Source: a virus. Taken from it: a DNA stretch of 64,000 nt. Each line of letters starts with the position of its first letter. Position 1 is the first letter of the stretch. Below, in pieces: positions 177 to 63,446 of this stretch. Below the pieces are notes generated by a model. The model made no database searches. It had not been told where the DNA came from and saw nothing but the letters and a program-made list of their open reading frames with translations. The DNA lies in IMG/VR virus record IMGVR_UViG_3300042090_002370, positions 99,860 through 163,859 of that record. One strand, written 5' to 3'. The position numbers were made by a program, and so were the translations under genes.

Positions 177-3002
177 GTGATCAAGGTCGCCTTCTTCCAC
201 GGGGAAGACGAGTACGGACCGAGGGTCATTCCTCTATTCGGCCCGGCGGACCCAGTATTCGAGAAGACCGCAGCTCCTACACTGCTGCCTGAGGTAGCAA
301 AGTACATCGCAGGCCTGCGGCCGCAGAACGACTCGCAGTACGTGCTGCTCAACGCGATGGGTGCAAGTGAGTGGTGGGGTTCGAACATAAACGGCGACGC
401 TTTCACCGAGGCCTCCCTCATTCACAGGCCTGATGAATGGTCAGGCAACCCGCTTGTGGACAAGCCTCGTTCGACCGACTGGCCTTACGGCTTTCCCACG
501 TTCTACTTTGCCCACCCCTACGCCCACCATCGCAACAAGGATGCCGCGCGGGCCTTCGGAGATGTAGAGCTCGCTGCCTGGCATCCGAAGATGAAGCGGG
601 TCGAGCTTGTTACCCGTGTCGACAAGGACAAGTGCCAGGAGTTCGGTGGCACCGGGGTCTGGGACAAGCTCAGAGCCGGCGAGCTCCCCGACGTGTCGAT
701 GGGCTGCTTCAAGGCAGGGGCTCAAGTCACCATGGCGGACGGTACGCGAAAGCCTATCGAGGATGTTGTAGTAGATGACCGCGTACGAACACATACTGGC
801 GGTGTGGGGCGTGTAACCGAGCTGCATCGTAGACGCTACCGCGGTGAGTTCTTTGAGATTCAGCCCGCCAATGAGGATTCTTTCATAGCTACGCAGGAGC
901 ACCCTTTCTGGGCAGCCTTCAACAGCAAGGACCCCTCCAGAGTTTGGCGGAAGGAACATCCGGTTTTTGACTGGGTGGGCGCCAGAGACTTGGACGGCGC
1001 TGTGCTCGCACACCCCAAAATTACTACGGAGGCACCATCAGAAATCACAACTGCGTGGGCCCGCCTCATCGGGTACTACTTGGCCGAAGGCCACGTTGTA
1101 TTCAATAAGAAGGACGAACCGGCCGGCATCGAGCTCACAGTGGGTGCGGAGGATGCCATACACGATGAGATTGAGAGGCTCTGCGCTGAAATCGGCACGC
1201 GCAACATGCCGGTCTGGCGGCCACGAGAGAACAGCTGTAAGGCTTTCGCTATCGGCATCTATGATCCTGAAGTGGCTGAGCGGTGCGCGATGTACGCCGG
1301 CCGTTTCTCGAAAACCAAGAGGTTAGCCGAGGCAGTTCTGTACTGGCCTACGCACCTTCAGCTAAATCTGATTGGCGCCTATCTGAACGGTGACGGGTTC
1401 TCTACAGCCACCGGCCTGCTGTGCGCGAGCACTTCCTCCCAAGACCTTGTGCACCAGCTTCGCGAGCTCCTATTCCGTCTCGGCATCCCGACTTCTTACC
1501 AGCTGCTTCACCACAAGGCCGGTAGCGGCTTCTCACGAACGGATACGGATGAGTGGGTGGTCTCCATCGGCCGACAGTGGGCGCCGCGTTTCGAGGGCTA
1601 TTGCGCCAAAGTACGCGTGATGCAGGTGGGCAAATCCAAGAATGTGCTAGCCGACTTCGGTGACCTTTGGGCTGTGCCTATACGCGCCCTGGATTCCTTC
1701 TACGATGAAGACGACGTTTATAACTTCGAGGTGGAGGGTGACAACTCTTACCTGGTGAACGGCGTCGCTGTGCATAACTGCAAGGTTCCCTTCGATACCT
1801 GCAGCATCTGCCTAGACAAGGAGACTTACCGTCGAGCGCAGCAGATGTTCAACTCCTCGCGTCACAGATCACCTGGGGACGCGGTGCTCGCCTACCACAA
1901 GGAGCTCATAAAGAAGAACGGCAAAGGCATCCGCGGCGTCTCTATCACCAGGAAGGACTACTGCGAGCACGCCGGCAAGATGATGAACCACATCCTGCCC
2001 GATGGCAGGAAGGTCTTCGTCTACAACGACTACCCCAAGTTCTTCGATATCAGCTTCGTGTTCATCGGCGCCGACAAGACGGCCAAGGTGATGATGAAGA
2101 TCGCCGGTGGCGGCAAGGTCTTTTGGTTCCTGAACGGCGCTGAGCTGGCAGAGAAGCTGGGCTACGGGCAGGACGATGACATCCTCATGCCAGAGTTTGC
2201 GCCTGATGGCACTGCTACGCTGAAGGTAGCCAGCGTCAGTGATGAGACGTTGAAGCACGCCTTCTTGGGGAAGCTGGCGAAGAACAAGGATGCGGAGATC
2301 ACAAAGGATGTTGTGCCCAGTCAGTTCGCTGGCAAAGCAGTACCGTTGCTGACACAACACGAGAAGGATCTACCCAAGTCAACGCTCGATGCGCTGGGTA
2401 CTTCTTCGCTCGAAGAGGCATTGTCCACACCAACCGGTCTCGGCATGGTGCTGCGCCCTCACGAGTTTCAGCGGATCATCCTTATTCAGATGGGAAAACA
2501 GCAACTGGCAGATGAGTTGGATAGTAAGGGTGAAGTCTTTCCGAAGAGTGAGGAGAAGCTTGATGTGCCTATGGGACCGCGCTTCTTTTCACAGGTTCTT
2601 GCTCGCTTGCTGTTGCCTATGATGAGTGAGCGTTCTGGTTTGGGGCCAGTAATTGAGAGGCGTGTACTGGTAGCTACTGGAGACCCCAAAGAAAAGCGTG
2701 GGAGGTCTTCTTCCCTTTCCAATCCCGTCCTGCGTAAGATGGGTGCTGCGTACAACGGATACCGAACAGGCATCATGGAACTTGTTGCACATGCTCCCGA
2801 ACTGATATCGTCGATGGCGATGCCGTCGCACAGTCAGTTGACCAAGCTTGCGTCAGCACCGGTCCAGTCTGTTTTCACTCCACTGAGCGCAAGCTACTTC
2901 AAACTCGCGTTCATGGACGAAGTCACACCCGCCTCCGTGGAGAGGGGATTCCCCTCGAGGAACACGTCGGCCATGAGCAAAAAAGCTGCCGGAGGATATT
3001 GA
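177..3002 (+). CDS. Putative prohead maturation protease containing an intein
   Basis: First gene of the head cluster; extein motifs NINGDAF, HHRNKD, DVSMG|CKVPFDTCSIC, FFDISFV resemble His/Ser phage prohead proteases; K-x-A-rich C-terminal part. Confidence 0.65.
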   Translation: MIKVAFFHGEDEYGPRVIPLFGPADPVFEKTAAPTLLPEVAKYIAGLRPQNDSQYVLLNAMGASEWWGSNINGDAFTEASLIHRPDEWSGNPLVDKPRSTDWPYGFPTFYFAHPYAHHRNKDAARAFGDVELAAWHPKMKRVELVTRVDKDKCQEFGGTGVWDKLRAGELPDVSMGCFKAGAQVTMADGTRKPIEDVVVDDRVRTHTGGVGRVTELHRRRYRGEFFEIQPANEDSFIATQEHPFWAAFNSKDPSRVWRKEHPVFDWVGARDLDGAVLAHPKITTEAPSEITTAWARLIGYYLAEGHVVFNKKDEPAGIELTVGAEDAIHDEIERLCAEIGTRNMPVWRPRENSCKAFAIGIYDPEVAERCAMYAGRFSKTKRLAEAVLYWPTHLQLNLIGAYLNGDGFSTATGLLCASTSSQDLVHQLRELLFRLGIPTSYQLLHHKAGSGFSRTDTDEWVVSIGRQWAPRFEGYCAKVRVMQVGKSKNVLADFGDLWAVPIRALDSFYDEDDVYNFEVEGDNSYLVNGVAVHNCKVPFDTCSICLDKETYRRAQQMFNSSRHRSPGDAVLAYHKELIKKNGKGIRGVSITRKDYCEHAGKMMNHILPDGRKVFVYNDYPKFFDISFVFIGADKTAKVMMKIAGGGKVFWFLNGAELAEKLGYGQDDDILMPEFAPDGTATLKVASVSDETLKHAFLGKLAKNKDAEITKDVVPSQFAGKAVPLLTQHEKDLPKSTLDALGTSSLEEALSTPTGLGMVLRPHEFQRIILIQMGKQQLADELDSKGEVFPKSEEKLDVPMGPRFFSQVLARLLLPMMSERSGLGPVIERRVLVATGDPKEKRGRSSSLSNPVLRKMGAAYNGYRTGIMELVAHAPELISSMAMPSHSQLTKLASAPVQSVFTPLSASYFKLAFMDEVTPASVERGFPSRNTSAMSKKAAGGY
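705..1778 (+). mobile_element. Intein with LAGLIDADG homing endonuclease (358 aa)
   Basis: Starts CFKAGAQVTMADGTRKPIEDV; block B ATQEHPFW; LAGLIDADG-like LIGYYLAEG and LIGAYLNGDG; ends VYNFEVEGDNSYLVNGVAVHN followed by +1 Cys. Confidence 0.95.
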
Positions 3003-3003
3003 G

Positions 3004-3903
3004 ATGGTCGACAAGGCACAGCAGATGGACGAGTTCCTCTCTGACTTCTACGGAACGGGCGCTGCGGTAAAGACTGCCGCCGCGAACCAGGAAGACCTCG
3101 AGAAGCAGGCCTCCATTGATCTCTTCATGAAGCTTGCTACCGAGCAGAACATCGACCTCGGTAAGATGGAGCCCAAGCAGGTAGAGGCGCTCTACAGTAA
3201 CTGGGTGAAGGCCGCTTCCGCTCCCGCCGCCGGGGCGGCTGAGGAAGAAGAAGAAAAGGAAAAGCACGAGGAGGCCAAGAAGGAGCACGAGGAGAAGAAG
3301 GCGCAGGCGGAGAAGGTCGCCGAAGCGGACTTCCTCGGGCGCGTCATGGCTCATGCGTACTGCCAGGAGATGCGCAAGATCGCCGAAGCAGCCGCCGACC
3401 CTGCGGTCAAGGAAGCAGGCAAGGTTCGCGACACACAAGCGGGCTATGTAGCAGCCAAGGGCATTGGCCATCGGGCGCATGAGGCCCTGAAGAAGGGGCT
3501 CGATCATGTGAAGGGCCATATGGCCAATACTGGTGCAGCGGCACATCATGCGGCACATAGCTCTGGTCCTGTAACCGAAGGCAAGGCAAAGGCGATTGGC
3601 GCCGGTATCCACGCTGCGGGCGCAGCAGGAGCGGCCGGTGCTGGCGCGGCAGCTGCGCACCACTTCGGCAAGGACAAGGAAGGCTCGGCTATCGACGGGC
3701 TTGCTGCTGAGCAGGCTGTGAAGGTTGCGTTCGAGGGAAACTTCGACCCCGAAGAGGCAGGTCGCAAGATCGCAGCGGTCCTCGAGCTCGGGCTTGCCGC
3801 GCCGAGCGAGAAGATTGCATCCGCTCCCGACTACGCGGCGGCGGTGGGTATCCGCGCTCTCGAACTACTCGAGGTCGCTGGCTACCCAGTTACGTGGTCG
3901 TAG
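3004..3903 (+). CDS. Putative scaffold/internal head protein, K-x-A-rich
   Basis: RBS GGAGG; between protease and capsid genes; helical Ala/Glu/Lys composition with about 10 K-x-A/G motifs. Confidence 0.55.
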   Translation: MVDKAQQMDEFLSDFYGTGAAVKTAAANQEDLEKQASIDLFMKLATEQNIDLGKMEPKQVEALYSNWVKAASAPAAGAAEEEEEKEKHEEAKKEHEEKKAQAEKVAEADFLGRVMAHAYCQEMRKIAEAAADPAVKEAGKVRDTQAGYVAAKGIGHRAHEALKKGLDHVKGHMANTGAAAHHAAHSSGPVTEGKAKAIGAGIHAAGAAGAAGAGAAAAHHFGKDKEGSAIDGLAAEQAVKVAFEGNFDPEEAGRKIAAVLELGLAAPSEKIASAPDYAAAVGIRALELLEVAGYPVTWS

Positions 3904-5394: not shown

Positions 5395-5760
5395 ATGGAC
5401 AAGCTCAGCAATGCTCAGGCCGCAGAGGTCCTCTCTGATGCGGCGGCCTACATCCGGGCGCAAGGCGCACAGATCAACGATCTTACGGAGAAGCTCGCTG
5501 CGAGGGAGCGCCGTGACCGCGTAGAGAAGCTTGCGGGTACGATGCACGCCAAAGGACTTGAGCTCGACATCTCTGCCGATGCTCTTGCTGACCGACTCGA
5601 GAAGACCGCAGCTGCCGGTAAGCTCGATGCGTACGAGCACGCCGTGGACCTCGTCGGTCCCGATATGGGAACGAAGCTCGCGCAGCTCACAAACGACGCG
5701 CCTGGGGATTCCTCCAGCGGGTCTGCTTTCGAATCGTACATCGTCGGGACGGCAGGATAG
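5395..5760 (+). CDS. Small coiled-coil scaffold-like protein
   Basis: RBS AGGAG; EKLAA, EKLAG, EKTAA, TKLAQ motifs; two genes upstream of the capsid gene. Confidence 0.55.
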   Translation: MDKLSNAQAAEVLSDAAAYIRAQGAQINDLTEKLAARERRDRVEKLAGTMHAKGLELDISADALADRLEKTAAAGKLDAYEHAVDLVGPDMGTKLAQLTNDAPGDSSSGSAFESYIVGTAG

Positions 5761-6370: not shown

Positions 6371-7495
6371 ATGAGTGTTCCGGCGCGAGTCCTGAACGAG
6401 CTTTTCACGCAGAAGCTCGGTTCGTCTGAGGGCAAAGAGAAGATGGCGGAGTACGGAGGTTCGTATATCCGCGACCGTCTGCGTGAGGTCTCTTACGCCC
6501 GCAAGGTCGTCCCACCGGAGCAGGTCACGCGCAGTGACTGCCAGCGCTCCGTCAACCACGACACCTTGGTCAAGATCGTGGATGTCGAGCCTCAGTCGAG
6601 GGCGCTCACGATGTCTTTCCGTGGTCAGCCCACGGCAAGATTCATTCGTGGGCCCAAGGCGGAGATCGGTTTCTACACGATCTCGAGCGAGGTCTTCCAG
6701 AAGACTGAGCAGGAGCTTCTGGCCTATGAGATGCCCATCACCAAGATCATCGAGGAGAACTCGGTGAAGGACATCCAGGAGGTCGAGGACCGTGAGTTCA
6801 CGGTCTTCACCGAGGCGGCCGTACAGGCCCTTCAGGTGGTCGCAAACGGCGGTGTCGCAACGCCGCTCAACGCGACGACCATCCAGGCTGGTGGCGTTGT
6901 GGAGTTCTCGGTGCGTAAGGGCGAACTTGCTCGGACGCAGACGAGCAACACATCCACCGTTTTCCCCATCCAGCGACCGGACCTCATCAACCTGTTCAAG
7001 CTCTTGGACGGGAACCGGTTGCGCTCGGAGCGCCTGCTGATGACGGAGGCCGACTGGGACGACATCCTCCAGTGGACGGTCGAGGACTTGGGCGACAGGC
7101 TCCAATCGGAGACCGCCGTCGACGGCTACAAGTACAACACCCTGTTCGGGCGTTCGTACATTCGTACTGTGAAGACGGACATCCTGCGTCCAGGAAACGT
7201 CTACGTCTTTACGAAGCCGGAGTTCTTCGGGAAGTTCTACGTCCTGAACAACACGAAGTTCTACATCGACAAGATCGCCAACGTCATCACCTTCCAGGCC
7301 TGGGAGGATATCGGCATGGCGGTCATCAACATCGCAGCCGTTCGCAAGCTCGAGCTCTACTCGGCAGACGCGGACCCCACGACGAACGCCGACGGTCTCA
7401 TCACGAGCTTCATCCCCGTGGTCGAGGACGCGCTCGGTGCGCCGAATAACCAGGTTGACAATGGCCTGGTTTTCCCTGGGATCACGCAGTACTAG
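6371..7495 (+). CDS. Major capsid protein (HK97-fold expected)
   Basis: 374 aa, strong RBS, C/G-ending codons, follows protease/scaffold genes, followed by a terminator. Confidence 0.8.
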   Translation: MSVPARVLNELFTQKLGSSEGKEKMAEYGGSYIRDRLREVSYARKVVPPEQVTRSDCQRSVNHDTLVKIVDVEPQSRALTMSFRGQPTARFIRGPKAEIGFYTISSEVFQKTEQELLAYEMPITKIIEENSVKDIQEVEDREFTVFTEAAVQALQVVANGGVATPLNATTIQAGGVVEFSVRKGELARTQTSNTSTVFPIQRPDLINLFKLLDGNRLRSERLLMTEADWDDILQWTVEDLGDRLQSETAVDGYKYNTLFGRSYIRTVKTDILRPGNVYVFTKPEFFGKFYVLNNTKFYIDKIANVITFQAWEDIGMAVINIAAVRKLELYSADADPTTNADGLITSFIPVVEDALGAPNNQVDNGLVFPGITQY

Positions 7496-40277: not shown

Positions 40278-40623
40278 GGTTGCCGTCGCGTTCAGCATGC
40301 TCGAGGAGCGGCTGAAGCAACTCGAGGATGCCTTCAACACGAATACGAGCGCGTTCAGCGACGGCTTCAAAATGGTTGAGGCACAACTCGAAGTGCTACG
40401 ACGCGTAGTTGAGCACGTGCGCACATCGTCGCCTTTCCTTAAGCTCGTCGATGTGAACTCAGGCGGGTTCTTGAAGCAGGTCTCCTGGAATGCTTACCTC
40501 AAAGAGTACATCGAGGAGCTGGTGGCCAAGGAAACTACGCAGGAAGAGCACGGTCCCGGACCAATTCTGCTAGACTCAGACGCGGGCCAGGAACAACCTA
40601 CTATTTTCGGAGGCGGTCAGTGA
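40201..40623 (+). CDS. Coiled-coil hypothetical protein
   Basis: LEERLKQLEDAF; start uncertain. Confidence 0.55.
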   Translation: MTQRDRSAKARRGSQSRPKAPRPQPKVAVAFSMLEERLKQLEDAFNTNTSAFSDGFKMVEAQLEVLRRVVEHVRTSSPFLKLVDVNSGGFLKQVSWNAYLKEYIEELVAKETTQEEHGPGPILLDSDAGQEQPTIFGGGQ

Positions 40624-40919
40624 GAATCATCCGATCTGTTCGTGACAATCGTGGCAACGTCATCGCGAAGACGCCTGCCGGTGGGGTGGGCCGCCTGAAG
40701 TGCCCCAAGTGCTCGGGCAACTGCACGGCGCAGCACATGCCGAATGGAAAGCGTGTGATGAAGTGTGGGAACTGCAGCGCGTCCTACGTAGTGGGCGCTA
40801 TGTCGTCTCCGAAGGTGGCGCAGCCGGGGGCGATTCAACCGCACACCCTGCACACGCATCACCATCCAACACGCCCTGCTGCGCGTCCCGTCGTAGCACC
40901 CACGCCGCGTGGTCGTTGA
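40620..40919 (+). CDS. Zn-ribbon protein
   Basis: CPKC...CGNC; GTGA-coupled. Confidence 0.6.
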   Translation: MRIIRSVRDNRGNVIAKTPAGGVGRLKCPKCSGNCTAQHMPNGKRVMKCGNCSASYVVGAMSSPKVAQPGAIQPHTLHTHHHPTRPAARPVVAPTPRGR

Positions 40920-54092: not shown

Positions 54093-54725
54093 GTGGACCT
54101 CAAACCAGTCACGCTTGCTGCGTTCGCTGATGAGCTCGGCAAGATAGCCGCGGCGCATGGCCTCAATGTCATCAGCAAGAGTCGTAAGGGCAGCCGGCCG
54201 ATTAGCGTCTCCAAGCTGCTTCAGAAGGATCGAGAGGGGACTCTACGGAAAAGGAAGCACGCCGATGCACAGGGCAACGCTCAGGACGTTCGCGGCGATG
54301 CGTGTGACGACCCGGGTGCTGCGCAGATCCCGCACCGCAAGGGCGAGGTTCCAACAAAGGGCTCGGACGACATTTCGGTAGGGCAGAAGACGGGGATGGT
54401 TCCAGGCGCTAATACGCAGACCTCTGCTGTCACTTCCGGTGAGGACACACGCATGACGCCGAGTGTGCGACCTTCTCCTGGTGATGTACCAACCCAGGCG
54501 AACATGGCCGTCGACCAGCCGAACAACCGTATAGGGCCTCCTACTCGTGGCATCACCTTCGATCAGGCGGCCAAGAAGGTTCGAAGTGGCGATGTTCCGA
54601 CGCGCACCGAGGACATGAACAAGGTGGACCGCGGGGATATGCGGGACAATACAACAACGGTGTCTGGCCTGGGACAGAGCTCAACTGGCATCGGCGCTTT
54701 TAACAGCCCGAGCGAACACACGTAA
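54093..54725 (+). CDS. FxDELxKIA-tagged protein with G[DE]VPT repeats
   Basis: LAAFADELGKIAA; GEVPT, GDVPT, GDVPT. Confidence 0.65.
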   Translation: MDLKPVTLAAFADELGKIAAAHGLNVISKSRKGSRPISVSKLLQKDREGTLRKRKHADAQGNAQDVRGDACDDPGAAQIPHRKGEVPTKGSDDISVGQKTGMVPGANTQTSAVTSGEDTRMTPSVRPSPGDVPTQANMAVDQPNNRIGPPTRGITFDQAAKKVRSGDVPTRTEDMNKVDRGDMRDNTTTVSGLGQSSTGIGAFNSPSEHT

Positions 54726-54750
54726 ATTACTGCGCGCCTCCGGGTATAAG
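54723..54750 (+). promoter_or_regulatory. Phage promoter TAAA-N16-GGTATAAG
   Basis: Motif variant before GGAGG and ATG 54767. Confidence 0.65.
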
Positions 54751-54766
54751 AACCTCGGAGGTTATC

Positions 54767-55174
54767 ATGTCTACAATTGATCTCAATTCATTGACGTTGG
54801 GGCAGCTGAAGGAAATCAAGGCACTGCTTGGCGTGCGGTCTTGTAAGGTCAAGGCTAAGCCAGCAAGCGGGTTCTGGACGGAGTCTTTCGAGGAGGAGGG
54901 CCCGGTCATCGTACGGAGTTACGGTGCCGGCGTTTTCTTCGGGTACCTATCCAAGAAGCGCGACAACGAAGTTCTACTTCTTCGGTGCAGGCGAATCTGG
55001 GTGTGGAAAGGCGCGAACACTTTGAGCGAGCTGGCGCGTCATGGCCTATTGCCGGAGGGGTCGAGAGTCTCAGAGCGCACTGCTAAGCATCGTGTGTTGG
55101 ACGTAATTGAGATTATCGACGTCACGCATGAAGCCATGAGGGTTTTGGAGTCCGCCGTGTGGAGCACAAAATGA
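54767..55174 (+). CDS. DUF6948-like small beta protein
   Basis: LTLGQLKEI; VIVRSYGAGVFFG..V.L..RRIW.W.GA.TLSELA..G. Confidence 0.7.
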   Translation: MSTIDLNSLTLGQLKEIKALLGVRSCKVKAKPASGFWTESFEEEGPVIVRSYGAGVFFGYLSKKRDNEVLLLRCRRIWVWKGANTLSELARHGLLPEGSRVSERTAKHRVLDVIEIIDVTHEAMRVLESAVWSTK

Positions 55175-55428
55175 AACGCGGTCGCCGTGTTTTCGGATAC
55201 GGATACGGATACGGAGACGGAGGCGGATACGGAAGCGGAGACGGAAGCGGATACGGATACGGAAGCGGAAGCGGAAGCGGATACGGAGACGGAGGCGGAA
55301 GCGGAGGCGGAAGCGGAGGCGGAGACGGAGGCGGAGACGGAGGCGGAGGCGGATACGGATACGGAAGCGGAAGCGGAAGCGGATACGGAGACGGAAGCGG
55401 AGGCGGAAGCGGAGGCGGAAGCGCGTAA
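55171..55428 (+). CDS. Gly-X dipeptide repeat protein (X = Y/D/S/G)
   Basis: ATGA overlap with the upstream stop; MKRGRRVF then (GX)38. Confidence 0.6.
   Translation: MKRGRRVFGYGYGYGDGGGYGSGDGSGYGYGSGSGSGYGDGGGSGGGSGGGDGGGDGGGGGYGYGSGSGSGYGDGSGGGSGGGSA
55195..55422 (+). repeat. 38 tandem GGANNC hexamers
   Basis: Only GGATAC, GGAGAC, GGAAGC, GGAGGC units. Confidence 0.95.
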
Positions 55429-55430
55429 CT

Positions 55431-55467
55431 AAAAAAGGAGGGCCGCGGCCCTCCTTTTTTTAGCCGC
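55431..55467. terminator. Bidirectional terminator plus TAGCCGC
   Basis: AAAAAAGGAGGGCC/GGCCCTCCTTTTTT. Confidence 0.85.
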
Positions 55468-55521
55468 GCAGCATCTGTAGCGCGCTTCCGAGGGCAAGCA
55501 CCCAGATGGTACGCTGCGTAT

Positions 55522-55956
55522 ATGGGCTTCATCGCTGCCACGCTCAACGGGCTTGTTTATGAGCTGGCCAAGATCGCGGCCTTCGCCAACGCAATGCAGC
55601 CGCCAGCGAGTCCGCAGGCGACGCAGATGGGCCCTATGCCTGGGCCGCAGCGCGTTCCGAGTATCAACGAGGCCGCCGTCGGCAGCGCGAACTACAAGAT
55701 GTACCTGCCGACGGTGGTGGCGGACATGCAGGCCCGTGCAGCAACTCCTACTATTCGCCCCGGCATGGCCGTAACGCCCAAAACCATTCCGGCGGCCGCG
55801 GGGGCACTTCCCCGTGCTGTAAGCGGTACGGTGCCTAAGCCCACCAGTATCCTGGGTGCAGCCGCTCGCGCTACTGTACGAGAGCCCTCTTCGTTCCCAG
55901 TTTCTATCGCTAAGACCATCTCGGCCCCGGCTGCCCGCATGGCAGCGCATCTGTAG
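55522..55956 (+). CDS. Tagged Pro/Ala-rich protein
   Basis: GLVYELAKIAA; TACGCT 6 nt before ATG. Confidence 0.6.
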   Translation: MGFIAATLNGLVYELAKIAAFANAMQPPASPQATQMGPMPGPQRVPSINEAAVGSANYKMYLPTVVADMQARAATPTIRPGMAVTPKTIPAAAGALPRAVSGTVPKPTSILGAAARATVREPSSFPVSIAKTISAPAARMAAHL

Positions 55957-55964
55957 GAGCACAC

Positions 55965-56651
55965 ATGAATCTGGAAGTCGCGCAGGCTGCATTCAAGGAC
56001 GAGCTAGAGAAGATTTCCTTCGCCATTACGGAGAAGGGGCACAAGTTCGACGCGGAGAAGCACCGCATCTTGGCGGAGCAGAGCGCGGCTTTGGATGCAC
56101 TGTACCAGCAGTACGGCGGACTAAGCGCGCCCGGCGACCCTGCAACGTTTGGCGGCGTTCTCCGATTCGGCCCCGATCAGGAGGAGGGGGCACACCGTCA
56201 TCATGAGTACGTGCAGAAAATGCACGAGATGGGCGCCAATGCATGGAACCCATTAGGTGGCATTCTGACACCCAGTTCATATGAAGAAGGCGGAACAAGC
56301 GGGCTGTTTTCTCAGCTTGGTAGGGTCTCCCCTAAACCAGTGCAGAAGATCGCTGCTGTCCTCACCGCACAAACGCTCTCCTCCTTCTCCACAGAGATGC
56401 AGAAGATCGGTGGCTGCACGAAGCTTGCTGAAGAGCTCACATCAGAAGCCAGGTCGAAGCTCCCAGGCAAGGACTTCGCGGTCAAGGCCAAGAAGTCGAA
56501 CACGGGCCAAGAGGCTTACCCCATACCGGACCGCCAACATGCTCGATCAGCGCTGGGCTTCGCCAAGATGCACGGTGACTCCGCTGATCTCTCAGCAGTG
56601 CGGGCGAAGATCAAGTCGAAGTTCCCGGACATGCTCGCCGGCGAGAAGTAG
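55965..56651 (+). CDS. Tagged protein with C-terminal DUF6582-like domain
   Basis: AAFKDELEKIS; SSFSTEMQKIG; LTSEARSKLPGKDFA..YPIPDRQHARSAL. Confidence 0.7.
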   Translation: MNLEVAQAAFKDELEKISFAITEKGHKFDAEKHRILAEQSAALDALYQQYGGLSAPGDPATFGGVLRFGPDQEEGAHRHHEYVQKMHEMGANAWNPLGGILTPSSYEEGGTSGLFSQLGRVSPKPVQKIAAVLTAQTLSSFSTEMQKIGGCTKLAEELTSEARSKLPGKDFAVKAKKSNTGQEAYPIPDRQHARSALGFAKMHGDSADLSAVRAKIKSKFPDMLAGEK

Positions 56652-56656
56652 CAGTC

Positions 56657-57304
56657 ATGGGTCTTCTTCAACGTTTTGGACAAGGGGCGCTAGAGCATAA
56701 GACCGAACTTGCCGGTCTCGGCATTCTTGCGGCGCCTAGTGTCGATGAGGCGCAGGCGCACATCCGTGCTGGACTTGCTGGTGACTACAACCATGAAGGC
56801 GTGAAGAAGAGAACGCTGCTACCGAGCGCAGTGAAACCGGCTACTGAGATCGGTGGTCTCGGTGTTCTAGCGTTACCTTCAGCTGCACATCTGCTCTCCA
56901 AACACGCTGTGGCTGGCCTATTCGACGAGCTTGTAAAGCTCTCGGCGATTACCGACGACGAGGCTCGCCGCTCTCTTGATCGTTATGACCAGCTGCAGAA
57001 GTCTGCGCCTACTGCTGGTCAGGCGCTACGTTATGGCGCTCTGGGTGTTGGCGCAGGGTCATTGGGCAGCGCAGTAAAGAGCACCATCGAACATGGACGG
57101 CTGCCATCGGCACGTGGAGCACTGGGCAGTGCAGCGTCGAACGCTATTGTAGCTGGAGCACTGCCGTTCATTCGCAGCACACTAGACCGTTCTGCGGAGA
57201 AGAGGACGCTCAAAGGCTACCTAGCTCAGGAGCACGTTGGTAACTACGCGCCAAATCAAGGCGCCTCGACGGACGTCGGCACGCCAACGGGATTGAGTCG
57301 GTAG
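56657..57304 (+). CDS. Two-module glycine-zipper protein with internal tag
   Basis: GLFDELVKLSA between two hydrophobic modules. Confidence 0.65.
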   Translation: MGLLQRFGQGALEHKTELAGLGILAAPSVDEAQAHIRAGLAGDYNHEGVKKRTLLPSAVKPATEIGGLGVLALPSAAHLLSKHAVAGLFDELVKLSAITDDEARRSLDRYDQLQKSAPTAGQALRYGALGVGAGSLGSAVKSTIEHGRLPSARGALGSAASNAIVAGALPFIRSTLDRSAEKRTLKGYLAQEHVGNYAPNQGASTDVGTPTGLSR

Positions 57305-57387
57305 AACGACAATGCCTAAGTGGGTACATGACAGGTCGGCTAGGATTCGCGCCGCCAACCCTGACATGCCAGAAGGAGAAGGCGAAG

Positions 57388-58113
57388 ATGAGATACAAAA
57401 CACCTGGAGATGACCAGAAGACTGCAGAGGCCGAGCTCGAGTTCTTCTTTCTCAAGATTGCCGAGACCAACGTAGGACAGTGGTGGGAGAACGTTGGTGG
57501 TCCGCATCTAGCGAAAGGAGGGAGCCACGACGACTTCAAGAAGATGATGGACAAGGAGAAGCTACCTGAGCACATCAAAAAGAAGTTCATGGATGTCGCA
57601 AAGAAGAAGTATCCGCCTGGCCACAACATGGGGGAAGGAGCGAAGTGGGATGCTGCTCGGCAGAGGGGTGGTGTGGGAACGCGGCCATCTTGGGCGCACG
57701 CAGGACCACCTCGTTCCGGATTCATGGGGCATCTCGAGCGGCATCCGCATCTAGCTGGTGTTGGCGTCGCTGCCGGTCTAGTCGGTGCCGGCTACTTGGC
57801 AGATAAGTACAACATGCACAAAGCGGAAAAGAAAAAGAGCGAAGCGGCTAAGCAAACGCAGAAGGCGGCTGCATCAGTTGATGACGTAACATTACTGTCT
57901 TTTCTTGATGAGCTCGAGAACATCAAGGCAGCAGGACTGCTCGACTCAGTCAAAAAGGTTCTCACTACGCCCATCCCAGGAACGCCGGAGATTATGCCTG
58001 GTGTGACACATGCCGCTGAGAAGTTGAAGGGCCTCTCAGGCAACGTCAGCAAGCAGGGGCCTAGTAAGGCCTACGAGAAGTTCGTGGCACAGCGCGCTGC
58101 TGCAGGGCGCTGA
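57388..58113 (+). CDS. Tagged multi-module protein (start uncertain)
   Basis: QKTAE, FFLKIAE, SFLDELENIKAA; TM-like AGVGVAAGLVGAGYL. Confidence 0.6.
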   Translation: MRYKTPGDDQKTAEAELEFFFLKIAETNVGQWWENVGGPHLAKGGSHDDFKKMMDKEKLPEHIKKKFMDVAKKKYPPGHNMGEGAKWDAARQRGGVGTRPSWAHAGPPRSGFMGHLERHPHLAGVGVAAGLVGAGYLADKYNMHKAEKKKSEAAKQTQKAAASVDDVTLLSFLDELENIKAAGLLDSVKKVLTTPIPGTPEIMPGVTHAAEKLKGLSGNVSKQGPSKAYEKFVAQRAAAGR

Positions 58114-60275
58114 TGCGCACGTGGTGTACAACGGCCTTTGTCGATGAGCTCGAAAAGATCGCGCTCGTGTCGACGCCTCTACTGCCTCACCAGCAGCGTG
58201 TGGTGGACCGTCTGCAGCAGAAGGACCAGCCTGGCCTGGTCGCCATTCACGGTCTGGGTTCTGGCAAGACACTCACCTCCATTGCAGCGCAGGAGGCTCT
58301 TGGTATGCCCTCTCAGGTGGTGGCGCCAGCGTCACTCCTCGGCAACTACCGGAAGGAGCGAGCGAAGCATCTCGAGGGCGAGTCGCAGAAGGCCTCGCTC
58401 ACTTCAATGCAGAACATGGCGACCAAGGGCAAGTCGCCGGATGCCCCAATGCTCATCGTCGACGAAGCGCATCGAGCACGAGACCCATCGACAGCTACCT
58501 TTCAGACCCTCAAGGGCAACACGTCACAGAAGCGTTTACTCCTTAGTGGCAGCCCATTCTACAACCACCCGTCAGACATCGCGCCACTCATCGATCTCGC
58601 CGCCGACGCGAAGGTCCTGCCCTACGATAAGGACGAGTTCACCCGCCGGTACATCACAGAGAAGGTGGTGAAGCCTGAGATGTGGCAGCGCGTGGCGAAC
58701 ATCTTCAGAAGTCCAGAGAACAAAGTGCAGCCCGGCGTGGTGCCGATGCTCTATCAGAAGAAGGCCCCAGAACTGCGTGATGCCTTCGCCAAGTGGGTGG
58801 ACTACCACCCTGGTAGTACGGAGAACTTCCCTGAAGTCACGCACGAGAACGTAGAAGTTCCGATGTCTAAGGAGCAGCTCAAGGTCTACGACACCTTGAT
58901 GGACAAGGCTCCGGCATGGGTCGCCGCCAAAGTGAAACGCGGCCTACCTCCCAACAAGCGCGAGGCGCAGCAGCTCAACTCCTTCCTCACAGCTTCTCGA
59001 CAGGCCGCCAACAGCACCTCCCCGTTCATCGAGGAAGGGCGCACTCCGGAGGAGCCGAAGATCCAGGCGGCGTTCGAACGCATGCAGAAGACGCTGGGTG
59101 AGAACCCGCGGTCCAAGGGTGTCGTCTACTCGAACTACCTCAGCGCGGGCATCGATCCCTACAAGCGGCGTCTCCAGGAGGCAGGCATCCCCTTCGGCGA
59201 ATTCACCGGAGAGCTCCCCGCCAAGAAGCGCGACCAGCTGGTCAAGGATTATAACGAGAACAGAATTCGCGCGCTGCTGCTCTCCTCCGCCGGCGGTGAG
59301 GGCCTAGACCTCAAGGGTACGCGACTCATGCAGGTGCTCGACCCGCACTGGAACCAGGAGAAGCTGAAGCAGGTAGAGGGTCGCGGTGCGCGGTACATGA
59401 GCCACGCCGATCTGCCGCCCGAGGAACGCAACGTGCGCGTGGAGAACTATCTGTCGACGCGGCCTCAGGGTCTCCTCAGCAGGGGCATGAATGCACTCAC
59501 CGGTAGGAAGCCGGATCAGTCCGTCGACCAGTACCTTTCGCAGATGTCTAAGGGCAAAGAGGACCTCATCAACCAGTTCCGCGAGCTCCTGCCGCAGGAG
59601 CAGCCGCCTGCCAAGACCGCCGCGACCAGGCTTCCGACGACAGAGGAGTCCCGTGCGCTCGCGAGTTCATGGAAGCCTCGACTGGCTGCGGAGGCTGCCT
59701 TCACGTTGCCGATGGCGACGAACACTGCGGCCCTGGGCTCGCTCATCGGTCCGAAGTGGGCGCTCATCGGCGCTGGTCTAGGCGGCCTATTGGGGCATAC
59801 CGTCTCGAACATTGAGCTGTCTAACATGGTCTCACACGGTAAGCGAATGGCGCGGGAAGCGGCGAGGAAGCCTACCAAGGAGAACGCGTTGCGGGAGTCG
59901 GCGGACGGGCTGGATTGGGGCGAGGTCGCACGGTCGTCGGTGGGGCACGCGTTACCTATCGCGCTACCGGCGATGTTCCATGGAGGACAAACCCACTACG
60001 CGCTCACGGACAACCTGATGGGCGCCTCTATCGCGACCGGCGCGCTCGGAGCCATCGGTTCTGGCTACCTCGACAAGTACCGACGGCAGATTGCTATCAA
60101 CGAGCTCGAGAATGCACGTCAGGAAGTGGGGACAGCGGATGCCGCTAGGCTTCAACGCCTTCGTAGGCAGGTTGCCAACTTAGAGGACCAGGTCGAAGGG
60201 GGTTGGAACAAGACCGCACCTGAAGACAGGACGACGCAAACTAAGCAGAAGGACAAGAGCGGAAAGGACTGGTAG
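58113..60275 (+). CDS. SNF2-like SF2 helicase with N-terminal tag and C-terminal glycine-zipper module
   Basis: HGLGSGKT, VDEAH, LSGSP, AGGEGLDL, HWN, QVEGRGAR; begins TAFVDELEKIA. Confidence 0.9.
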   Translation: MRTWCTTAFVDELEKIALVSTPLLPHQQRVVDRLQQKDQPGLVAIHGLGSGKTLTSIAAQEALGMPSQVVAPASLLGNYRKERAKHLEGESQKASLTSMQNMATKGKSPDAPMLIVDEAHRARDPSTATFQTLKGNTSQKRLLLSGSPFYNHPSDIAPLIDLAADAKVLPYDKDEFTRRYITEKVVKPEMWQRVANIFRSPENKVQPGVVPMLYQKKAPELRDAFAKWVDYHPGSTENFPEVTHENVEVPMSKEQLKVYDTLMDKAPAWVAAKVKRGLPPNKREAQQLNSFLTASRQAANSTSPFIEEGRTPEEPKIQAAFERMQKTLGENPRSKGVVYSNYLSAGIDPYKRRLQEAGIPFGEFTGELPAKKRDQLVKDYNENRIRALLLSSAGGEGLDLKGTRLMQVLDPHWNQEKLKQVEGRGARYMSHADLPPEERNVRVENYLSTRPQGLLSRGMNALTGRKPDQSVDQYLSQMSKGKEDLINQFRELLPQEQPPAKTAATRLPTTEESRALASSWKPRLAAEAAFTLPMATNTAALGSLIGPKWALIGAGLGGLLGHTVSNIELSNMVSHGKRMAREAARKPTKENALRESADGLDWGEVARSSVGHALPIALPAMFHGGQTHYALTDNLMGASIATGALGAIGSGYLDKYRRQIAINELENARQEVGTADAARLQRLRRQVANLEDQVEGGWNKTAPEDRTTQTKQKDKSGKDW

Positions 60276-60281
60276 AACATT

Positions 60282-60542
60282 ATGAGATTGCTACTCGCGC
60301 TCAGCGCGGTGTTGTTCTTGGGCTGCGGTGCAGGGCTCAGCATCACGGATGTAGAGGCGGAGCAGGCGACGCAGACGTTGTCAGGTGGTGGTTACAAGGA
60401 GCACTTCGATGACGACAGCGGCCTCGACAAGATTCGCTACCAAGCGATTTACTGCGGCAGTACCGGTATTCTTCTGCGGTCTGGCCATCCGACTAGCAGT
60501 ACGTCTGACGCCGGCCCGCAATGCCCGACGGTGGCTCCATGA
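60282..60542 (+). CDS. Lipoprotein
   Basis: MRLLLALSAVLFLGC lipobox. Confidence 0.65.
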   Translation: MRLLLALSAVLFLGCGAGLSITDVEAEQATQTLSGGGYKEHFDDDSGLDKIRYQAIYCGSTGILLRSGHPTSSTSDAGPQCPTVAP

Positions 60543-60832
60543 CCTTCGATGAGCTGAAGGCGCAGCTAGCCACTGACTGCCCGTTTTGGGGGGAGTCGGA
60601 ATGGAACGCTTTTCTCACAGCTGATCCAGCTACGCAGCAGGCCTTGGCTACAGCCATGCACCTGTCTACAGAGGGCCTTGGTGTAAACGGGTGGCAAACC
60701 GCGCTGACCATCCTGCAGGAGGCCGCCCCTGCCTTCAGCCTCATCCCTGCAGTAGGCCCGTTCATCACCAGTGGCATCGAAGCCATCGACATGCTTGTAA
60801 ACTACCTCCGCCTGAAGGCGGAGGCTTTGTAG
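60539..60832 (+). CDS. Hypothetical protein with amphipathic C-terminus
   Basis: ATGA-coupled to the lipoprotein. Confidence 0.6.
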   Translation: MTFDELKAQLATDCPFWGESEWNAFLTADPATQQALATAMHLSTEGLGVNGWQTALTILQEAAPAFSLIPAVGPFITSGIEAIDMLVNYLRLKAEAL

Positions 60833-60867
60833 CTCACGCCACAAACTTTTGTGAAACTGTTCACACC

Positions 60868-62156
60868 GTAAACAACCCCGCCCTAAAGGGCGGAGCTTTG
60901 TGATTGAGCTTTTGAGACTCGAACCACTTTCCTGCTTCGACGAGGTGCCCTAAGGCGGCAAGAACTCTCCACAGGCTGAACCGATGGTTTCCAACGGCTT
61001 TTCAAAATCTTCGAGGCATTAATGTCGGCATGTTCCCGGTAACCGCAATGGACGCAGCAAAATACCTCTCCCTTGCGGGAAGCGGCGTCGATGCACCCAC
61101 AAGCCGAGCATGTTTGAGACGAGTAGGCGGGGTGGACTTCCGCCAACTGACCGCCCTCCCGCGTGAGCTTGTACTTGAGGAACTTGGCGAGCATTCCCCA
61201 ACCTTGGTCGAGGATACCTCGCGCAAGCCCCCGATTAGCCTTCACCATGTTGCCGATCTGGAGATTCTCGATCACGACGGTGCCGTGGCTCTTGGCGTAG
61301 TCGTGACTGAGCTGGTGACAGAAATGCTCCCGTTGCCTACGGACCTTCCGGTGAAGGTTGGCGCAGCGGAGCTTCGCTTTCTCTCGGTTTTGGGATCCTT
61401 TCTTCCTCCTAGAGACAGTACGTTGAGCACGCGCAAGCCTCTTGAGAGCCTTGCTGTAGAAGCGGGGGGATGGGACAAGCTTGCCGTCCGAGTCCGCGAT
61501 CACGTTCGTAACGCCTCGGTCGATAGCGACGATGGGCCCGACCTTTGGAGTCGGGTCGGCAACTTCAACCTCGCAGACAATCGAGGCGAACCACTGATCG
61601 CCGTCTCGCTTGAGGGTGCAAGTCTTGGGTCTGCCTTCGATGGGTCTGTGGATAACGGCTCTGAGGTTGCCGAGTTTGGGGAACCTCAAGAGGTTGCCGT
61701 CCAACCGCCAAGCTTTGGGATGTGGCTCGGTCAAGCCAAGGAAGTCTCGTCCTCGCTTCTTCCACCTAGGAGCCCGAGCCACCCGCTTGAAACAGCGTTG
61801 CCAAGCCTTGTCCAACTCGACGAGGAGCTGGGCACACACGTTTCGAGGAACATCGGCGAGCCAAGGAAGCTCTCTGCGAAGTTCGGTCAGTTCGTTGATC
61901 TGATCGAATGCGGACTGGAAGATTCTCTCGTCCCTAGGACGTGCAAGTCCCATCTGCCGCTGTTCAAGAGCAAGGTTCCAGAGGCACCGGAGAGCACTCT
62001 CCCACTGCCCGAACCGATCGACTTGAGCTTCGGTCGGGTAGACGCGATAGCGGAACGCCTTGCTCGTGACCACGGTACTACCATAGTACATCCCACAACC
62101 ATCTGGAGAGCGGTTCCTCCTCGGCCTGAAGGCCGAGGTTTCCCCGCTGAGATCCG
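60868..62156 (-). mobile_element. tnpB-only IS200/IS605-family element (IS1341-like)
   Basis: Subterminal hairpins CCTCGGCC-TTCA-GGCCGAGG (left) and CTCCGCCC-TTTA-GGGCGGGG..TTAC (right); no tnpA; exact ends inferred. Confidence 0.75.
60883..62091 (-). CDS. tnpB: RNA-guided endonuclease TnpB
   Basis: AFRYRVYPT HTH; RuvC AIDRGV, VIENL, HADINAS; CSACG..CVHCG Zn ribbon. Confidence 0.95.
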   Translation of the reverse strand: MYYGSTVVTSKAFRYRVYPTEAQVDRFGQWESALRCLWNLALEQRQMGLARPRDERIFQSAFDQINELTELRRELPWLADVPRNVCAQLLVELDKAWQRCFKRVARAPRWKKRGRDFLGLTEPHPKAWRLDGNLLRFPKLGNLRAVIHRPIEGRPKTCTLKRDGDQWFASIVCEVEVADPTPKVGPIVAIDRGVTNVIADSDGKLVPSPRFYSKALKRLARAQRTVSRRKKGSQNREKAKLRCANLHRKVRRQREHFCHQLSHDYAKSHGTVVIENLQIGNMVKANRGLARGILDQGWGMLAKFLKYKLTREGGQLAEVHPAYSSQTCSACGCIDAASRKGEVFCCVHCGYREHADINASKILKSRWKPSVQPVESSCRLRAPRRSRKVVRVSKAQSQSSAL

Positions 62157-63446
62157 ATGAACAAGGAATCCATCTTCCCGGAGCTGGCCCGACTAGGCTC
62201 GCATATCATGGGGCGTGCTCCTGAAGCCACTGCGGCCACAGAGGGGGCCGTGCGTGGTGCGATGGGGCAGCTACAGAACGGTGCGAAGAGGGTATTGAAC
62301 ACACCCATTCCGGGCACGCCTGAAGTCATACCTGCGGGCATCCGCTGGCACCTTCGCAAAGGGGTCGACAAGGTTATCGAGAACCCGGCGTTGGCGCTCG
62401 GTACAGTGACCCCTGTACCGTTTGGTGGGCCTCTTCTCATGGGGGCGCAGCGGGCTGTCGAGAGCGGTATCAACCGACTCGTACCGCCCAAGCTGGCCTT
62501 CGCCGTCTCGCAGTACTCGGGGGCGCTCAACCCCGTCATCGAGAGCGGCGCGAGCTATTTGCCGCAGCGAAAAGTTCCACGGCTTGATGTCGCGGTGGAC
62601 AAGGGCAATCTGCTCAAGGAGAAGGACAGCGACGCGCTCCCAGAAGGCATCGCGATGCAGCCTTGGGACAGTTTCAAGCGCTCGAAGTACGCCTTCATGG
62701 ATGAGTCGAATCCGTATCTGCGTAAGGCGGTGATAGGAGCTCTCGGTGGGGCGTTGGTCGGCGGTCTTGGTGGTGTTGGTCATGAGGCCATCTGGAAGAC
62801 GCCGATGAAGCCTATGTCGATTCACACGGAGGCGCAGGACAATGCCGGTGTTGATACAAGGTATGAGGGTGCTGACGTGGGCTCGTTGAAGCCTATACCT
62901 GAGGGCAGCTCGCCGATAGGCAGCAAACACTACACGTCACCGCGGGAGCTGGCGGTTGGTCGACTGGCCTCAACGCAAAACGCCGGTAAGAAAGTAAAGC
63001 CCCCGCCTGGTGTTAGGGAGATTGTCGAATCGGGTAGGCATCGGACAGTCACTGTAGACCGCCCAGAACTCGATGTCGCTGGGCGCATTTCGCCGCTCAG
63101 CTTCCACCATGACAGGCGCGCCATGTCGAGGGAACAAGCCATCGAATTCGCGCAGCGCGAAGCGCGCACACCAGGCAAGTACGCCATGCCGACGGAGAAG
63201 ATGGCCGAGTTCGTGGAGGGCCTGTTGAAGGAGGCCATCCCCGGCCTCACTCCTCAGAGCCGGTTGGAGCAGAGCGCAAGGATAGGGGCGCCCAAAGCTA
63301 CACCGCCACCAGGCCCATCGATTGCGGATATTGCGAAGCCCAAGGGAAGCGCGTTCGGTACGGCTATCGCCGGTGCGAACAAGGGTACGATTGGCGGTAC
63401 CAGTGTTGGTGGTATCGGCAATATGAAAAGCCTGCCGTCGTTGTAG
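62157..63446 (+). CDS. K-x-A multi-module protein with glycine zipper
   Basis: PKLAF, SKYAF, EKMAEFVEGLLKEA; GALGGALVGGLGG. Confidence 0.7.
   Translation: MNKESIFPELARLGSHIMGRAPEATAATEGAVRGAMGQLQNGAKRVLNTPIPGTPEVIPAGIRWHLRKGVDKVIENPALALGTVTPVPFGGPLLMGAQRAVESGINRLVPPKLAFAVSQYSGALNPVIESGASYLPQRKVPRLDVAVDKGNLLKEKDSDALPEGIAMQPWDSFKRSKYAFMDESNPYLRKAVIGALGGALVGGLGGVGHEAIWKTPMKPMSIHTEAQDNAGVDTRYEGADVGSLKPIPEGSSPIGSKHYTSPRELAVGRLASTQNAGKKVKPPPGVREIVESGRHRTVTVDRPELDVAGRISPLSFHHDRRAMSREQAIEFAQREARTPGKYAMPTEKMAEFVEGLLKEAIPGLTPQSRLEQSARIGAPKATPPPGPSIADIAKPKGSAFGTAIAGANKGTIGGTSVGGIGNMKSLPSL

Follow-up and report, generated by a model that had tools for sequence, protein, structure and literature searches.

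The DNA analyzed here, referred to as the window, comprises the final 64 kb of a virus record of 163,859 bases in IMG/VR (IMGVR_UViG_3300042090_002370, hereafter G000), whose estimated completeness is 88%. Between 54.1 and 63.3 kb, the window encodes seven to nine copies of a short peptide, [FL]xDELxKI[AS], on proteins that otherwise have little in common. We refer to this peptide as the tag and to the remainder of each protein that bears it as the cargo. The full consensus of the tag is M-x7-[AS]-F-x-D-E-L-x-K-I-A, i.e., 17 residues. An earlier note on this DNA had listed eight such peptides and interpreted them as parts of a capsid-targeting and polyprotein delivery system; all eight were confirmed in the + strand open reading frames (ORFs) to which it had assigned them, and we add a further weak copy near the start of ORF 62157 (Table 1). 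Even the most diverged of the eight, EFVEGLLKEA, is real, in that the orthologue in a relative, L004, has VFVEELRKQA. The motif begins 8–10 residues past the start codon in four ORFs (54093, 55522, 55965 and 58113), the weak copy in ORF 62157 begins 5 residues past it, and the remaining four lie inside the protein (the second of ORF 55965, and those of ORFs 56657, 57328 and 62157).

The strict DNA pattern for F-x-D-E-L-x-K-I matched three times in the window, relative to 0.00 matches expected from 100 dinucleotide shuffles. The three copies are encoded with different synonymous codons; thus, selection acts on the peptide. Conservation of the motif at the level of DNA or RNA was rejected on the same ground. 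Over the 164-kb record as a whole, the motif is clustered at 54.1–58.2 kb of the window, with three more copies outside it: one at the C-terminus of an InPase-domain protein, one at the N-terminus of a gene preceding the portal gene, and one internal. The InPase-domain protein (G000 40422–40907, L248:4423–4908; PF18823, E 1e-41) ends in AFFDELTKIEGAT, i.e., a C-terminal tag, and its homologue at L095 carries the tag at the N-terminus instead. The proposal that the tag is an amphipathic helix is plausible: hydrophobic residues spaced at –3, 0, +4 and +7/+8 fit such a helix, but the hydrophobic moment is moderate (0.20–0.38).

Comparison with relatives shows how the tag behaves while its surroundings change. 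Where the orthologue of the helicase ORF 58113 has 65% identity and the tag FTDELGKIA, the motif is kept in five syntenic genes and the rest of the sequence has diverged. In L004 the orthologue of ORF 54093, the top match of the tag model in the studied genome, is tagged as well, and the two tag positions of ORF 62157 read LLERLVRLGA and VFVEELRKQA. ORF 56657 is split there: its first half continues an ORF 55965-like protein, and the portion that begins at the tag forms an ORF of its own (L004:9406–9768), starting MDVRACLDELQKLGA. The L004 helicase has an extra 76 residues ahead of its tag. Proteins with 3–5 tags exist in the databases, and internal tags often retain a Met-Asn start. The metagenomic proteins P0121, P0122 and P0128 consist of 3–5 tandem units of a tag plus a short module, the units of P0121 being about 55 residues long and clearly repeated. 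Since internal tags correspond to the starts of separate genes, to fusions and to multi-tag chains, tags mark the module boundaries at which genes fuse and split, in agreement with the earlier description of the tag as lying at N-termini or between modules. Gene fusion and fission at tags would be expected if the chain is cut there anyway. In addition, a second shared string, K-[KR]-V-L-[TN]-T-P-I-P-G-T-P-E-[IV], comes after the tag both in ORF 57328, within its C-terminal module, and in ORF 62157, within its N-terminal part; these two modules look like paralogues.

The spread of the tag was assessed at the level of DNA and of protein. A scan of IMG/VR with a back-translated DNA pattern matched at least 119 stretches. 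Among the matches listed, a start codon lay at most 14 codons upstream of the motif in 105 of 124 distinct proteins, the modal distance being 8. The resulting logo has M at –8, N/D at –7, hydrophobic residues at –5 and –3, and [AS][ASG] preceding the Phe, with no conservation past the final Ala. A tag profile, applied to the 8000 best word-sharing candidates from a 5.8-billion-protein collection, recovered 761 proteins, none of them named and hardly any with a Pfam domain. Within the best 120 of that search, 110 tags were N-terminal and the cargo parts formed 93 unrelated groups. An exhaustive search of 1.84 billion representative proteins with a 30-position profile gave 86 matches at E≤0.001, 75 of which begin in the first nine residues of the protein. 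The N-terminal tag was thus recovered on many unrelated proteins, with cargo parts in at least 93 groups, as expected of the portable element that had been postulated. No Pfam or PHROG family covers the N-terminal tag among 113 tagged proteins checked, and a literature search with the motif strings found no description of it, as the first reading of the sequence had already supposed.

As a cellular control, the same DNA pattern was applied to 596 Gb of bacterial and archaeal genomes, giving at least 120 matches. Among those listed, 113 of 120 lay deep within long proteins, mostly in the ClpX/HslU Walker-B stretch 'GIVFIDELDKIA' and in some cases in DXS/transketolase, and a single locus contained any homologue of the studied phage. 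The N-terminal form of the tag is therefore phage-specific, whereas the bare string is not. The earlier note had held that its proposal would fail if the motif were common in non-virion proteins: the bare string is indeed common, through ClpX/HslU, but there it is an internal Walker-B segment and never an N-terminal tag. A census of cellular genomes by motif alone would be swamped by such matches. The string F-[IL]-D-E-L-D-K-I-A belongs to the ClpX/HslU Walker-B region in many phyla (bacterial loci L129–L247); mimicry of it by the tag was considered and set aside as coincidence, the structural context being different and internal.

The cargos have a distinctive composition. Tagged proteins of the window have isoelectric points (pI) of 9.3–10.7, with one at 7.1, and at most one Cys each. 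In the tagged family as a whole, Gly, Lys, the GxxxGxxxG pattern and long uncharged segments are enriched and Cys is depleted. The suggestion that many cargos are glycine-zipper segments was supported by the occurrence of GxxxGxxxG in 21 of 93 tagged cargos, relative to 5 of 140 control ORFs. A few cargos are enzymes, i.e., an SNF2 helicase, the InPase (PF18823), a Peptidase_C92 and a zinc peptidase (Zn_peptidase_2). The helicase, ORF 58113, matches Pfam SNF2-rel_dom and Helicase_C as well as phrog_62, and further tagged SNF2 proteins occur in the databases (P0013 and P0033). InPase and SWI2/SNF2 domains are hallmarks of polyvalent proteins, for which packaging and injection have been predicted (Iyer et al. 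2017, PMC5512222).

The head module of the same phage opens the window, with ORF 177 (interrupted by an intein), a scaffold-like ORF at 3004 and the major capsid protein, followed by long late genes without family assignment. The earlier note had called ORF 177 a protease, and this was supported. The intein gives Hint/LAGLIDADG matches, and the gene has the terminase gene on one side and the scaffold-like and capsid genes on the other. The intein-free family comprises 797 database relatives, none of them named, with His116, His117, Ser173, K29 and A31 as invariant residues. Many relatives lack the intein (526–620 residues), and others contain inserts (700–1170 residues). An AlphaFold2 (AF2) model of the N-domain, built from a 35-row alignment (mean predicted local distance difference test score, pLDDT, 81.5; residues 1–32 disordered) and compared by VIA-align, best matched T4 gp21 (5jbl; Z 8.6, root-mean-square deviation 2.9 Å over 131 residues). 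Herpesvirus assemblins came next (Z 8.2–5.8), and the first 29 rows were all such proteases. Neighbours in a protein language model were Peptidase_S77/S80/S78. A profile search of PDB sequences gave no match, Foldseek alone returned weak E-values, and a full-length model of an ORF 177 homologue (10-row alignment) was unusable at a pLDDT of 51. Taken with the conserved His and Ser residues and the location in the head module, the model supports the assignment of ORF 177 to the assemblin/T4 gp21 fold of capsid-maturation proteases.

The K-x-A end of the tag recurs in this head module. The protease family has just two invariant residues between positions 4 and 53, K29 and A31, both in the segment that is disordered in the model. 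In the ORF 3004 family, K34 and A36 are invariant across 12 sequences at about 30% identity. The first site of the ORF 5395 family is R-V-E-K-[IL]-A; the second is DRLEKTAA here and DELQKVA in the L104 orthologue, an alignment that links the E-K-T-A-A and D-E-L-x-K-I-A forms. The element is thus a conserved E-K-x-A in the protease N-terminus and in scaffold-like proteins, and a majority feature of the capsid N-terminus. Among the products of genes adjoining those for the portal, terminase and protease, K-x-A is also over-represented 3–4 times (z 3.3–6.1). In phage T4, the capsid, scaffold and internal proteins share the L/I-x-E site with the protease itself. By this analogy, K-x-A is likely to be the protease consensus and the tag a propeptide that ends in it. 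The Ala that would then occupy P1 is reminiscent of the herpesvirus x-A|S rule. Predicted complexes of the tag with the capsid and scaffold-like families scored 0.05 against a mark of 0.32, which speaks neither for nor against binding. As a separate observation, P-x-V-x-F-E-K-T-A-A is common to two unrelated proteins, about 25–30 residues in: g92127 (G000 92127–94151) and the protease (window 258–275).

Directly 5′ of the window lie the large terminase, a fused β-β′ RNA polymerase of 2159 residues and a probable portal with a second intein. The closest cultured phages, Salmonella phage Arash and Vibrio phage D69, are remote (capsid identity 27–30%), and GenBank phage searches with capsid and terminase returned nothing beyond distant phages of the Arash/Vibrio D69 type and Bacillus siphophages. 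Among the matches listed, 79 of 111 pattern-selected viral loci contain homologues of late genes of the studied genome; the tag is therefore a hallmark of one uncultured lineage of phages of 100–210 kb. Five related genomes each carry 4–10 significant tags. In the pattern-selected loci, tagged genes recur in particular slots: before or after the portal gene, 3′ of the β-β′ RNA polymerase, between the g94194 family and terminase genes, in the usual scaffold position flanked by the ORF 177 family and the capsid gene (for example in L104), between the ORF 12710 and ORF 13847 families, and immediately 3′ of the ORF 50977 family, the last in the window and in 9 other loci. Neither PHROGs nor Pfam gave a match for ORFs 45297, 49175 and 50977, for ten further late ORFs or for the remaining tagged ORFs.

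The explanation that we favor, with a confidence slightly above even, is that the tag is a portable head-addressing propeptide of this uncultured large-phage lineage, which serves in both capsid targeting and cleavage. The position of the tagged genes, the shared motifs, the composition of the cargos and the analogy with T4, P1 and polyvalent proteins all point this way, though indirectly. A tag would be placed at the start of a module, or sometimes at the end of the preceding one, and would probably dock the module into the core of the assembling prohead. The K-I-A end would probably then be the cutting site for the assemblin-type head protease encoded by ORF 177; this enzyme would also process itself, along with the scaffold-like and capsid proteins, at E-K-x-A sites related to K-I-A. 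The cargos, mostly small, basic, Cys-free, Gly/Ala-rich glycine-zipper proteins with a few enzymes (SNF2 helicase, InPase and peptidases), would remain in the head beside the DNA and exit with it at infection. Of the original capsid-targeting and polyprotein proposal, the portable tag, its placement at module starts and the protease are supported, and the shared K-x-A element is added here; docking, cleavage and delivery are the steps that we infer.

Several observations weigh against this explanation. The cluster in the window sits past large late genes, which the earlier note had taken for tail genes, and outside the head genes. The conserved stretch of at least 9 residues exceeds the needs of a protease site, and cleavage and docking are therefore inseparable. 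Positions just past K-I-A are not restricted to small residues, and the capsid N-terminus has K-E-K-I-A-E in the majority of sequences, so that K-x-A is not invariant there. Cutting after K-I-A would leave C-terminal tags, such as that of the InPase, and internal tags on the upstream module. Carriers of the tag are known from metagenomic sequence alone: the tag DNA pattern had no match anywhere in the full Arash record, and the tag model gave nothing convincing on the head regions of Arash and D69.

A broader form of the idea, which we put forward tentatively as falling short of an even chance, is a two-part addressing code in which a 17-residue docking helix and a K-x-A protease site, working at either end of a module, would bring 4–10 or more freely shuffled effectors into the capsid and release them for injection. 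The effectors would be a helicase, a pyrophosphatase and peptidases, together with many glycine-zipper proteins that act on membranes. Such a system would amount to a split polyvalent protein, with a shared tag in place of covalent fusion, and fusion or fission at tags would be neutral.

The occurrence of the same E-K-x-A element in the protease, the scaffold-like proteins and the capsid N-terminus would also fit a narrower role, in which the motif is solely a recognition and cleavage site of the maturation protease, or a scaffold-type assembly element, and the tagged proteins are expendable core or scaffold that is degraded at head maturation. Many tagged proteins are indeed small, of low complexity and scaffold-like, and tagged genes occupy the scaffold slot between the protease and capsid genes. 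This role is nevertheless unlikely, as the tagged enzymes (SNF2 helicase, InPase, C92 peptidase and zinc peptidase) are ill-suited to scaffolding and are of the domain types found in injected polyvalent proteins, and both the strict N-terminal position and the conserved F-x-D-E-L before K-I-A go beyond what a cleavage site needs. We regard as similarly improbable a tag that acts as a docking or oligomerization helix, building glycine-zipper proteins into a complex of the tail lumen, the baseplate or a trans-envelope ejection apparatus, independently of the capsid interior. Its attraction lies in the tagged cluster directly 3′ of the ORF 50977 family here and in 9 other loci, in the enrichment of GxxxGxxxG and of long uncharged segments, and in a heptad-like hydrophobic spacing that suits helix bundling. 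However, most of the recurrent slots adjoin portal, terminase, protease and capsid genes, the motif is common to the protease and scaffold-like proteins, and the 'tail context' of ORF 50977 has no Pfam or PHROG support. That the tag addresses proteins elsewhere in the infected cell, i.e., to a phage compartment, a chaperone or, as a timed degron, a host protease, is very unlikely: the lineage does encode its own β-β′ RNA polymerase like nucleus-forming jumbo phages, and N-terminal peptides are common as degrons, but the tagged genes lie within late structural operons, the motif is common to head-assembly proteins, the cargos are basic and Cys-free in the manner of internal head proteins, and we know of no linear import signal for phage nuclei.

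If the tag is a head-addressing propeptide, it can be compared with several known systems. In T4, a capsid-targeting sequence (CTS) on the internal proteins IPI-III and Alt is removed by the gp21 prohead protease (PMC3012670). The likeness is that a short N-terminal peptide is common to unrelated, fast-varying, basic proteins of one phage, that the studied phage encodes a protease of predicted gp21 fold (Z 8.6) in its head module, and that the end motif of the tag appears to recur in scaffold, capsid and protease. The sequences are unrelated, however: the T4 CTS is MKTYQEFIAE, 10 residues cut after the final Glu, whereas the tag is about 17 residues ending in K-I-A, and the putative specificity is K-x-A here versus L/I-x-E in T4. 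Tags are also found at internal and C-terminal positions, in polyprotein-like chains, and the lineage is not T4-like, its capsid matching only phrog_2522 and Arash-type phages.

In P1, the helicase-methylase DarB is loaded into the capsid by about 30 N-terminal residues, which are a sufficient signal (PMC9024508). ORF 58113 resembles it as a large SNF2-type helicase with a putative N-terminal signal that matches the DarB-type profile phrog_62. The match covers positions 694–1099 of 1881, and ORF 58113 is a helicase only, with no methylase domain; moreover, homologues of DarA, Hdf, DdrA/B or Ulx were not seen here, and the P1 signal is not a motif common to many cargos. With polyvalent proteins (PMC5512222), the effector repertoire overlaps (InPase PF18823, SWI2/SNF2 ATPase, papain-like and zincin peptidases, and many small unknown domains), and both have a modular, shuffling architecture and a predicted delivery with DNA. 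In those proteins 2–15 domains share a chain, whereas here they are mostly separate genes, each with the same tag: most tagged genes are single-module, with two-module ORFs 55965, 56657 and 57328 in the window and the 3–5-tag proteins elsewhere. MuF, MPTase-PolyVal and Hint domains, in a further difference, had no Pfam match within the tagged ORFs of the window, and processing here would be by the head protease.

In phiKZ-like phages, many head-internal proteins of the inner body and ejection apparatus are cut at a short consensus by an assemblin-fold protease (SPN3US gp245/phiKZ gp175; PMC7411985, PMC10052503), and the cutting suggested here would be analogous. Like the present lineage, these are large phages that encode a multisubunit RNA polymerase of their own, but the phiKZ-like consensus ends in Glu and the propeptides are long and paralogue-specific, in contrast to one short universal tag. 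Encapsulin cargo-loading peptides would be similar in function, as short portable peptides that send diverse cargo inside an HK97-fold shell; they differ in being usually C-terminal and uncleaved and in binding the shell protein directly.

Should the tag prove to be a head-loading signal, the injected protein arsenal of a common uncultured lineage would be readable from sequence. It would constitute a second, sharply defined capsid-targeting code, distinct in sequence from that of T4, with a putative K-x-A protease specificity nearer to the herpesvirus x-A|S rule than to the x-x-E of T4, and it would tie the effector repertoire of polyvalent proteins to delivery by tag rather than by fusion. 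Being short, portable and equipped with its own release site, such a tag would also be of practical use for loading foreign proteins into phage heads.

Table 1. Head-module genes, tagged genes and tag copies of the window; positions are counted from its first nucleotide.
Feature	Position	Strand	Description
ORF 177	177–3002	+	Predicted capsid maturation (prohead) protease; intein directly after the SMG serine; F-E-K-T-A-A at residues 28–33 (258–275)
ORF 3004	3004–3903	+	Scaffold-like acidic helical protein; three conserved E-K-x-A sites, one being QEMRKIA at 3358–3384
ORF 5395	5395–5760	+	Small helical head-module protein; RVEKLA and RLEKTAA (5596–5613)
ORF 6371	6371–7495	+	Major capsid protein (phrog_2522); conserved N-terminal arm N-E-L-F-x-x-K-L, then K-E-K-[IM]-A-E
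ORF 54093	54093–54725	+	210 aa, pI 9.3, basic, low-complexity; tag at residues 1–19 (54093–54149)
FADELGKIA	54123–54149	+	N-terminal tag of ORF 54093
ORF 55522	55522–55956	+	144 aa, pI 10.7; Ala-rich basic protein with variant tag
LVYELAKIA	55552–55578	+	N-terminal variant tag of ORF 55522
ORF 55965	55965–56651	+	228 aa; two modules, two tags; C-terminal domain matches phrog_16160
FKDELEKIS	55992–56018	+	N-terminal tag of ORF 55965
FSTEMQKIG	56385–56411	+	Second, internal tag-like copy of ORF 55965
ORF 56657	56657–57304	+	Two ELAGLGILA hydrophobic repeats, then internal tag and Gly-rich module
LFDELVKLS	56918–56944	+	Internal tag of ORF 56657
ORF 57328	57328–58113	+	Basic; Gly-rich hydrophobic segment, internal tag, short TPIPGTPE module (57967–57990)
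FLDELENIK	57901–57927	+	Internal tag of ORF 57328
ORF 58113	58113–60275	+	SNF2-family helicase, 720 aa; tag at residues 1–17 (58113–58163); C-terminal Gly-zipper-like segments after the core
FVDELEKIA	58137–58163	+	N-terminal tag of ORF 58113
ORF 62157	62157–63446	+	Gly-zipper protein, 429 aa; weak N-terminal tag, TPIPGTPE module (62301–62324), internal diverged tag
IFPELARLG	62172–62198	+	Weak N-terminal copy of ORF 62157, added here
FVEGLLKEA	63210–63236	+	Internal diverged tag of ORF 62157; weakest of the eight copies listed earlier

Some further features of the neighbourhood were noted. The β and β′ parts of the RNA polymerase are fused in the one 2159-residue ORF (G000 83436–89915, L126:3436–9915), placed in the late region between portal and terminase; in relatives it has tagged genes on its flanks, and it is a possible candidate for a virion RNA polymerase. 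Inteins of the LAGLIDADG type occur in both the head protease (window 177–3002) and the probable portal (G000 75487–78852). The tagged cluster of L004 is followed closely on its 3′ side by a sigma-70-like gene (L004:15862–16659; Sigma70_r3, E 3e-13) and includes an untagged poly-γ-glutamate hydrolase-like gene (L004:7382–8227; PF05908). In a similar place to the latter, the window has an untagged DUF6948 and Gly-repeat cassette (54767–55428). A small untagged ORF with a lipoprotein-type signal (LFLGC) lies at 60282–60542, between the helicase and a TnpB element.

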